A DNA stretch of 57,449 nt from positions 1 to 57,449 of the forward strand of contig JAJZJD010000001.1 in assembly GCA_021828445.1 (NCBI GenBank). The letters run 5' to 3'. The DNA is from a bacterium (GTDB lineage: Bacteria > SZUA-79 > Acidulodesulfobacterales > Acidulodesulfobacteraceae). The position numbers and the translations under genes were made by a program. Of this stretch, positions 32,986 through 33,259 are shown one piece after another (the stretch's first letter is position 1; each line of letters begins with the position of its first letter). The notes beneath the pieces were generated by a model. It did not search any database. It had not been told where the DNA came from and saw only the letters and a list, made by a program, of their open reading frames with translations.

Positions 32986-33001
32986 TGGCATGAATATTGC
33001 A
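32986..33001 (+). promoter_or_regulatory. sigma-54 (-24/-12) promoter TGGCAT-N5-TTGCA for the nifH operon
   Basis: TGGCATgaataTTGCA has correct spacing. It lies about 260 nt upstream of the nifH ATG. Confidence 0.65.
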
Positions 33002-33112
33002 AGATATTAAATTAAAGAAAAAATTAAAGAAAAAAATTTAAATGATTATCCAAGGAGTTAGTTATTAAATGAAATAAATATTCAATTTATATCTATTTTA
33101 AATATTAAATAA

Positions 33113-33146
33113 AGCGCAAATGGGCGCTTGCGGCAATGACGCCGCA
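33113..33146 (+). promoter_or_regulatory. two tandem hexaloop hairpins in the nifH leader (candidate ANTAR-binding antiterminator)
   Basis: P1 is AGCGC[AAATGG]GCGCT (33113-33128). P2 is TGCGGC[AATGAC]GCCGCA (33129-33146). The P2 loop has A1/G4 as in described ANTAR targets, and the P1 loop has A1 but T4. Confidence 0.5.
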
Positions 33147-33221
33147 ATTAAAGAGAGTTAAACTACTTAAAGTATTTGTTAAGTTTTTATATTCTCCTTA
33201 GTTGCGGCGTTTTTGTTTTTT
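33139..33221 (+). terminator. intrinsic terminator in the nifH leader, mutually exclusive with hairpin P2
   Basis: 33139-33158 pairs with 33191-33210 over about 20 bp, with one A/C mismatch and two G-U pairs. The core is ACGCCGCAA/TTGCGGCGT. It is followed by TTTTGTTTTTT, and its 5' strand includes the loop and 3' arm of P2. Confidence 0.65.
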
Positions 33222-33259
33222 AAAATAATTTATTTTTATTTTATTTGGAGGTAGAAGAA

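Follow-up and report, generated by a model that had tools for sequence, protein, structure and literature searches.

A putative ANTAR-controlled transcription attenuator in the nifH leader of an uncultured relative of Candidatus Acidulodesulfobacterium

We analyzed a 57,449-nucleotide (nt) stretch of bacterial DNA (contig JAJZJD010000001.1, assembly GCA_021828445.1; hereafter the window) that carries a nitrogen fixation (nif) cluster, and found that the leader of nifH, between a sigma-54 promoter and the gene, is probably an ANTAR-type, protein-dependent transcription attenuator, a reading to which we assign a probability of about 0.8. Our computations directly support the anatomy of the leader, two mutually exclusive folds, energetics that favor termination, covariation, similarity to published ANTAR substrates, and the co-occurrence and co-loss of the element with a REC-ANTAR regulator gene. 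An ANTAR-controlled attenuator had been proposed for this leader from the letters alone (hereafter the sequence-only reading), and that proposal is now supported by architecture, conservation, covariation, substrate likeness, and joint loss. The features on which the argument turns are as follows.

32986-33001, plus strand: sigma-54 (-24/-12) promoter of the nifH operon, TGGCATGAATATTGCA, an exact match to the pattern.
33013..33112, plus strand: 5′ part of the leader, variable and AT-rich, unconserved in length and sequence, with GGAG at 33055-33058.
33113..33128, plus strand: P1 hairpin, AGCGC / AAAUGG / GCGCU, with a 5-bp stem and a hexaloop that has U at position 4.
33129..33146, plus strand: P2 hairpin (predicted antiterminator), (U)GCGGC / AAUGAC / GCCGC(A), with 5-6 bp and a hexaloop that has A at position 1 and G at position 4 (A1/G4).
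33138..33211, plus strand: predicted intrinsic terminator hairpin in the minimum free energy (MFE) fold, whose base helix takes up the 3′ end of the P2 loop and the P2 3′ arm.
33210..33221, plus strand: U-tract, TTTTTGTTTTTT.
33260..34120, plus strand: nifH (NCBIfam TIGR01287, 452 bits), with the ribosome-binding site (RBS) GGAGG at 33247-33251 and the ATG at 33260.
42725..42740, plus strand: second sigma-54 promoter, TGGCACAAAAATTGCA, ending 12 nt 5′ of the ANTAR ATG (42753), without a Shine-Dalgarno sequence.
42753..43361, plus strand: REC-ANTAR response regulator of 202 amino acids, a predicted antiterminator, between nifX and the P-II genes.

The promoter, which the sequence-only reading had called near consensus, matches the pattern exactly, and the adjacent hexaloop hairpins P1 and P2 are present as it had described them, separated by a linker of 1 nt. 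The MFE fold joins 33138-33151 to 33198-33211 and 33153-33158 to 33191-33196, such that nucleotides 33138-33146 are common to P2 and the terminator and the two folds are mutually exclusive. The stem base CGCCGC/GCGGCG followed by U5GU6 has the makeup of a rho-independent terminator; an automatic terminator scan did not flag this hairpin because it permits loops of 3-8 nt only. That the terminator re-uses P2, as had been proposed, is confirmed by MFE folding and by RNAalifold, while its placement 40 nt before the RBS has to be corrected: the end of the U-tract lies 25 nt from GGAGG and 38 nt from the nifH ATG. The leader folds at -58.2 kcal/mol (z = -5.15), with 0 of 200 dinucleotide shuffles as stable, and P2 alone reaches -10.1 kcal/mol. 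A generic ANTAR-attenuator descriptor (two hexaloop hairpins at most 14 nt apart, A1/G4 in the second, the 3′ arm re-used downstream, then a T-run) retrieves this site alone when both strands of the window are searched, and gives no match in 100 dinucleotide shuffles.

The element is conserved. In 13 distinct orthologous nifH leaders, which we gathered from genome contigs and through exact-protein look-ups, the full set of P1, P2, and terminator is present (13/13), as is a T-run 3′ of the stem (13/13), and a sigma-54-type promoter is kept 5′ of P1 at a varying distance (~33 to ~130 nt), across a segment that is itself unconserved. Every leader has P1 plus the terminator as its MFE structure (-26 to -50 kcal/mol), compared with -1.8 to -10.1 kcal/mol for P2 alone. 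The default state would be termination, with P2 needing a stabilizing factor to win, because the predicted fold is everywhere P1 plus a far more stable terminator. At two positions of the segment common to P2 and the terminator, the pairs differ among leaders (GC, GU, AU), with matching changes in the P2 5′ arm as well as in the terminator 3′ arm. The base helix of the terminator is 100% paired (10 leaders) with two covarying pairs (GC:6/AU:4 and UA:4/CG:3/UG:3), P2 is 94-95% paired with compensatory changes at its two outer pairs, and P1 has ~95% of cells paired over the 13 leaders with one compensatory pair; slid-partner controls gave 22-52% pairing, and 22-47% for the P1 and P2 stems taken by themselves. 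The consensus fold from RNAalifold, obtained independently, is again P1 plus the terminator, with seven compensatory pairs. Both loops are 6 nt long in 13/13 leaders. The P2 loops are AAUGAC, GAUGAC, GACGAC, AACGAC, and AAAGGC, with G4 and A2 in all 13, A1 in 8/13 and G1 in 5/13, and the P1 loops are AAAUGG, AAAUGA, AAGUGG, AAUUGG, AAUUAG, GAUUAU, and GAUUGA, with A1 in 11/13. Comparing the energies of the two folds, aligning orthologous leaders, and scanning with a covariance model of published ANTAR hairpins are checks that had been suggested with the sequence-only reading, and all three came out in its favor: the terminator is far more stable than P2, P1 and P2 are conserved with compensatory pairs in both, and they rank third and first, respectively, in the scan described below.

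The 5′ part of the leader carries a GGAG (often AAGGAG) 45-60 nt 5′ of P1 in 8 of the 13 leaders, sometimes followed by an open reading frame (ORF) of 2-6 codons. This GGAG could pair with the CUCC of the terminator 3′ half, or load ribosomes. Attenuation by a leader peptide was considered and rejected, the short ORFs in the 5′ leader being different among relatives or absent.

We compared the hairpins with known ANTAR substrates using a single-hairpin covariance model built only from 16 published eut/nas/ami hairpins. On both strands of the 57-kb window, P2 is the first-ranked match (17.0 bits) and P1 the third (14.4 bits), and the two matches stand 3 nt apart; their E-values are singly weak (0.11 for P2 and 0.55 for P1), and it is the adjacency that carries weight. 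The second-ranked match (16.7 bits) is a perfect ANTAR-like hexaloop hairpin, CGGC-AACGGC-GCCG, at 10163-10176 on the minus strand, antisense in amtB, which is probably due to chance because it has neither a partner hairpin nor a terminator. A clade-specific covariance model of the element gives one strong match per locus, always in the nifH leader (42-62 bits); the runner-up in the window is a lone hairpin antisense in amtB (10160-10181, minus strand; 17.6 bits), nothing else in the clade loci exceeds 10.6 bits, and in 1.5 Mb of unrelated loci it found no match at E<=1. A regular expression and the clade-specific model revealed no further targets in the window and ~440 kb of clade loci. Searches against Rfam, of the whole window at gathering thresholds and of the leader at E<=10, returned chance-level matches only and no ANTAR-target family.

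The strongest support for our interpretation comes from genome comparison, in a close relative that has lost the ANTAR ORF together with the segment holding P1, P2, and the terminator. Loss of the ANTAR gene with the terminator kept would silence nif; of a functional pair, joint loss is to be expected. The gene and the element are found together in 11 distinct clusters, and a REC-ANTAR gene stands 3′ of nifX in every relative having the element. The ANTAR gene is missing from three independent assemblies of one sister lineage (related loci L186, L187, and L188 in our numbering; sources GCA_054608985.1, GCA_054636475.1, and a Logan contig) that have 90-94% DNA identity to the ANTAR-positive L170/L183. 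In these, the P-II genes come immediately after nifX. In the region concerned (L186 11763-12101), the ~617 bp at L183 9943-10559 are cleanly deleted; they hold nearly the whole ANTAR ORF, of which the final ~60 nt survive (blastn aligns them, and tblastn recovers 11 codons). In the L186 leader, ~400 nt with P1, P2, and the terminator are replaced by 24 nt, with the sigma-54 promoter and the RBS-proximal sequence kept; the deleted segment corresponds to positions 814-1216 of the 1290-nt spacer in the L173 leader. The clade-specific model finds no match in L187, and the L188 leader lies outside the fetched range.

The regulator itself has the domains expected of the family. Pfam places Response_reg at 6e-23 (81.5 bits, cut-off 30.2) and ANTAR at 5.5e-18 (64.9 bits, cut-off 27.3), bearing out the earlier identification of a REC-ANTAR gene between nifX and the P-II genes, and its best relatives of solved structure are EutV (6WSH, 1e-23) and Rv1626 (1e-22). 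It belongs to a clade of ~38 database clusters, all from metagenome-assembled genomes, with 69-100% identity, the next relatives being at most 41% identical. A scan of metagenome contigs with the ANTAR alignment listed generic receiver domains, and no close relative was among the matches listed. Receiver residues D17, D61, T88, and K115 do not vary among 20 clade members, in which conservation of D18 is at least 90%, and an MDI motif aligns with the MDI of EutV, in the region of the phospho-acceptor Asp54. Because these receiver residues are conserved in the clade, control by phosphorylation is likely, unlike in AmiR. At the EutV RNA-contact positions the picture is mixed: the SMN motif (equivalents of Met172/Asn173) is kept, but several other contact residues differ (see below).

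The pattern TGGCAY-N5-TTGCW (GG and GC elements 10 nt apart) has three exact matches in the window, compared with 0.02 expected, and all three precede nitrogen-related genes, namely a porin-glnK-amtB operon (7082), nifH (32986), and the ANTAR gene (42725). In 11 of 15 relatives, the ANTAR-gene promoter adjoins the start codon; in the remaining four it is found ~55-85 nt upstream. The 12-nt spacing from promoter to ATG, seen here for both the ANTAR gene and nifV, is conserved in most relatives. Since the promoter ends 12 nt before the ATG and there is no Shine-Dalgarno sequence, we predict that the sigma-54 transcripts of these two genes are leaderless, beginning at about 42751 (ANTAR gene) and about 32737 (nifV, minus strand).

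Based on these results, we propose the following model. Under nitrogen limitation, an enhancer-binding protein would fire the nifH promoter, and P1 would fold in the nascent leader. By default, the more stable terminator would form with the P2 3′ arm, and polymerase would stop at 33212-33221, freeing an RNA of ~200 nt. The same nitrogen signal would fire the second sigma-54 promoter, before the REC-ANTAR gene, and a kinase encoded elsewhere would phosphorylate Asp61, upon which the regulator would dimerize, bind the P1 and P2 hexaloops successively, and keep P2 closed. Nucleotides 33138-33146 would thereby become unavailable to the terminator, allowing read-through into nifHB-DKENX, as for EutV and GnfR. 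Read-through may also boost expression of the ANTAR gene and so self-reinforce the regulator, because that gene has the same orientation and is situated downstream, no terminator intervening. The net logic would be that of a sigma-54 feed-forward AND gate, as in Geobacter, where GnfL/M lead to GnfK/R. It is from EutV and GnfR that we infer U-tract termination, phospho-dimerization, binding of P1 and P2, read-through, activation by nitrogen status, and feedback.

The system is not new in kind, and close precedents are found in Geobacter, Pelobacter, and Desulfotomaculum. The experimental precedent for antitermination at nifH is GnfR of Geobacter sulfurreducens (Ueki and Lovley 2010, PMC2995071). 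The likeness is one of arrangement: as here, the Geobacter nifH leader has a sigma-54 promoter followed by an intrinsic terminator, and the REC-ANTAR gene has its own sigma-54 promoter and an unlinked kinase. The GnfR box GGCAANGGCGCC corresponds to the P2 core, being exact in L010 and L173 (GGCAAAGGCGCC) and one change away in the window (GGCAATGACGCC), and in our reading of the published 48-nt RNA, the upstream hairpin of the Geobacter nifH site likewise abuts P2 with essentially no linker. The two systems differ in that Geobacter has several targets (nifH, nifEN, nifX, and glnK, as well as amtB), whereas in the sequence visible here the nifH leader is the only one; the Geobacter glnK/amtB leaders carry the element, whereas the sigma-54-driven porin-glnK-amtB operon of the window does not. 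Here, in addition, the regulator gene stands after nifX and before two P-II genes, and P1 is a regular 5-bp hexaloop hairpin. For Pelobacter carbinolicus and Desulfotomaculum acetoxidans, Ramesh et al. (2012, PMC3369931; Fig. 9, Table S2) predicted ANTAR RNA sites in front of nitrogenase subunits; similarly to the present case, dual-hairpin matches overlap terminators there, upstream of nifB and P-II genes as well as of the nitrogenase subunits. Their regulons have several sites and belong to cultured members of the Deltaproteobacteria and Firmicutes, whereas ours is a single-site system in an uncultured Ca. (Candidatus) Acidulodesulfobacterium relative. The sequence-only reading had implied that it is special for the RNA element to share a locus with the regulator and the structural genes; this does not hold, as GnfR (GSU2822) and NifH (GSU2821) of G. 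sulfurreducens adjoin, with consecutive locus tags, and the ANTAR gene of P. carbinolicus lies a few kb from its sites, within ~8-17 kb of the matches.

Beyond nitrogen fixation, EutV/EutW of Enterococcus faecalis shares the dual hexaloop motif with P2 inside the terminator (Ramesh 2012, PMC3369931; Walshe 2022, PMC8934654), and eut leaders have AAnGnn loops with C-G closing pairs, as in P2 here. EutV is, like the protein described here, a REC-ANTAR regulator, and its best match of solved structure. The published P2 of Listeria monocytogenes eutA has G1, as do 5 of our 13 P2 loops. The eut system differs in its pathway, ethanolamine use rather than nitrogen fixation, and in having the kinase EutW adjacent, whereas none is linked here. 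In the seed alignment of Ramesh et al., the Pseudomonas aeruginosa amiE hairpin AGAGC-AAAUGG-GCUCU is one compensated pair away from P1 of the window and has the same U4; it is terminator-proximal in amiE but distal here, and AmiR differs in having a pseudo-receiver that is sequestered by AmiC and not controlled by phosphorylation. The promoter geometry of the regulator gene, with its predicted leaderless mRNA, also sets the present locus apart from the systems compared here.

Several points weigh against the attenuator as we read it. Termination and antitermination in this lineage are taken over from other systems, and the folding energies are computed. The covariation comes from two to three variable pairs in 13 related sequences, which makes it supportive, not decisive. 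Position 4 of the P1 loop is U in 13/13 leaders, such that P1 departs from the A1/G4 rule, and of the contacts seen in the EutV-RNA structure that with G4 alone is base-specific, G4 being needed in both eut loops. The linker is 1 nt in 12/13 leaders (5 nt in one), outside the range of known substrates, which is 5-12 nt in eut, where its length matters, and 2-25 nt in an actinobacterial survey; induction was lost when the linker of eutP was cut to 3 nt. Among the EutV RNA contacts, Y164 is replaced by H, R168 by Q (also Q in Rv1626), R175 by G, and R177 by P, with an Arg in our regulator one position before the equivalent of R177. A second lineage, L178, has the same leader deletion, in a fetched range that does not reach its ANTAR position. 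Lastly, in keeping with the sequence-only reading, which had noted the absence of a sensor kinase, no histidine kinase was found among the ORFs of the window, nor within 10 kb in more than 15 related loci. This last point is not disqualifying, because GnfK is likewise unlinked to GnfR. We take U4 of P1 as a variant rather than an exclusion, since the operational rule of Mehta et al. for ANTAR targets tolerates one point variation and the amiE loop is identical; the T at this position, which the sequence-only reading had raised as a caveat, is there, but it is shared by all 13 leaders and has a precedent in amiE, and so is not peculiar to this copy. Given the invariant U4 of P1 and the 1-nt linker, real ANTAR sites would escape any search that insists on A1/G4 for each loop or on a linker no shorter than 2 nt.

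The alternative that best survives, which we nevertheless consider unlikely, leaves the attenuator ANTAR-dependent but makes the regulator an orphan, set by a partner protein (possibly the P-II pair) or by a small phosphodonor such as acetyl phosphate, by analogy with AmiC-AmiR and NasS-NasT. The missing neighbor kinase would fit an orphan but is uninformative, given that GnfK is also unlinked in Geobacter, and the invariant order ANTAR, P-II, P-II would fit a P-II partner, but the P-II genes are kept where the ANTAR gene is deleted and hence have an independent role. Small phosphodonors are considered possible for GnfR by Ueki and Lovley (PMC2995071), whereas a partner-set regulator on the AmiR plan is hard to square with a receiver whose active-site residues (D17, D18, D61, T88, K115) are all conserved, unlike those of the AmiR pseudo-receiver. 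A more elaborate form, a true orphan that takes its nitrogen input from the two co-transcribed P-II proteins through a P-II-to-ANTAR partner switch on the RNA, with divergent recognition (U4, 1-nt linker, coaxial stacking), seems to us less likely again.

Lower still we place the possibility that another RNA-binding protein, a ligand, or a small RNA governs the terminator, as an attenuator either regulated or constitutive, with the ANTAR protein acting elsewhere. The visible ~57 kb leaves room for ANTAR targets outside it, and the absence of G4 from P1 and a linker outside the EutV working range would suit another controller; yet the window's first and third matches to published ANTAR hairpins are precisely P2 and P1, and the ANTAR ORF was lost together with the P1-P2-terminator segment in a lineage of 90-94% identity. 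The leader matches no Rfam family, but P1-P2, at 37 nt, is too small a module to hold a typical ligand pocket, and the 5′ leader is unconserved, with short upstream ORFs that vary among relatives. Least probable of all is that elongation is not controlled and the structure is a 5′ stabilizer, an RNase site, or the end of a sigma-54 small RNA, with nifH transcription starting further downstream: the promoter of the ANTAR-minus lineage lies ~105-115 nt from the ATG, with nif presumably still working there, and the default product would be a discrete ~200-nt RNA, but a motif search found no second promoter between 33221 and 33260, covariation maintains a P2/terminator overlap that a plain stabilizer would not need, and the ANTAR-minus lineage keeps the same promoter and sheds the attenuator segment only.

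The remaining features of the locus are the following.

31596-32735, minus strand: nifV (homocitrate synthase), divergent from nifH, with its ATG at 32735; the entry including the promoter is 31596..32763.
32763-32748, minus strand: sigma-54-like promoter of nifV, TGGCATAAATTATGCT, 12 nt 5′ of the ATG (32735), without a Shine-Dalgarno sequence.
34139..42698, plus strand: remainder of the operon, with nifB (a short, radical-SAM-only form), a methyltransferase, an fdxN-like ferredoxin, nifD, nifK, nifE, nifN, and nifX.
43422..44268, plus strand: two P-II genes (nifI1/nifI2-like; Pfam P-II), directly 3′ of the REC-ANTAR gene.

The order of the nif genes is identical across all relatives, and the P-II pair follows the ANTAR gene in all of them, being retained where the latter is deleted. 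Within the 524-nt divergent spacer between nifV and nifH, a direct repeat at ~32860-32899, TTAATCAATA and TTAAGCAAAT, 21 bp apart and ~100 nt upstream of both promoters, is conserved in L003, L004, L009, L165, and L181 and is a candidate binding site for the sigma-54 activator. The porin (BBP2)-glnK-like P-II-amtB operon (7082-10595) has a consensus sigma-54 promoter at 7082-7097, and inspection of its 103-nt leader showed no hairpin pair, ANTAR element, or terminator. The only kinase-type signaling genes of the window are a Ser/Thr protein kinase (16531-18258) and the adjoining PP2C-type phosphatase (14791-16419), for which we saw no link to the nif cluster.

The 242-nt spacer between nifE and nifN (40590-40831) contains a G+C-rich palindromic element, single copy in the window, with its core at 40650-40756, CGTCATTGTGAGCGAAGC...GCTCCTCGCAATGACG, and inner arms at 40686-40696 and 40723-40733. 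It looks like a small mobile palindromic insertion within the operon, because nifE and nifN of the fetched relatives overlap or stand at most ~180 nt apart (8 nt in L161; overlap in L165). Another palindromic element, GGATTCCCGCTTTCGCGGGAATGAC...GTCATTCCCGCGAAAGCGGGAATCC, is inserted at 860-975 of L186, in the nifV-nifH spacer of the ANTAR-minus lineage, and short G+C-rich palindromes thus seem to move around within these AT-rich genomes.

With regard to the host, the G+C content of the window is 35.7%, and NifV homologues with 67-74% identity carry the names Ca. Acidulodesulfobacterium and Ca. Acididesulfobacter, which makes the organism an uncultured relative of that group. The Ca. Acidulodesulfobacterium group has 30-37% G+C, is found in acid mine drainage, and is reported to fix nitrogen (PMC6776010); the papers on this lineage that we consulted make no mention of antitermination. 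What is peculiar to the locus is the invariant U4 of P1, the 1-nt linker, the absence of a linked kinase, and the predicted leaderless mRNA of the regulator. The ANTAR-plus and ANTAR-minus lineages, the former represented by GCA_054608635.1 and the contig Ga0495008_000039 and the latter by GCA_054608985.1, form a natural pair that supports the link between RNA and protein and could be used to trace the cognate kinase through co-lost genes. Taken together, these results would carry ANTAR control of nitrogenase, which rests on experiment in Geobacter, over to a lineage that is uncultured and AT-rich, near Ca. Acidulodesulfobacterium and Ca. Acididesulfobacter.

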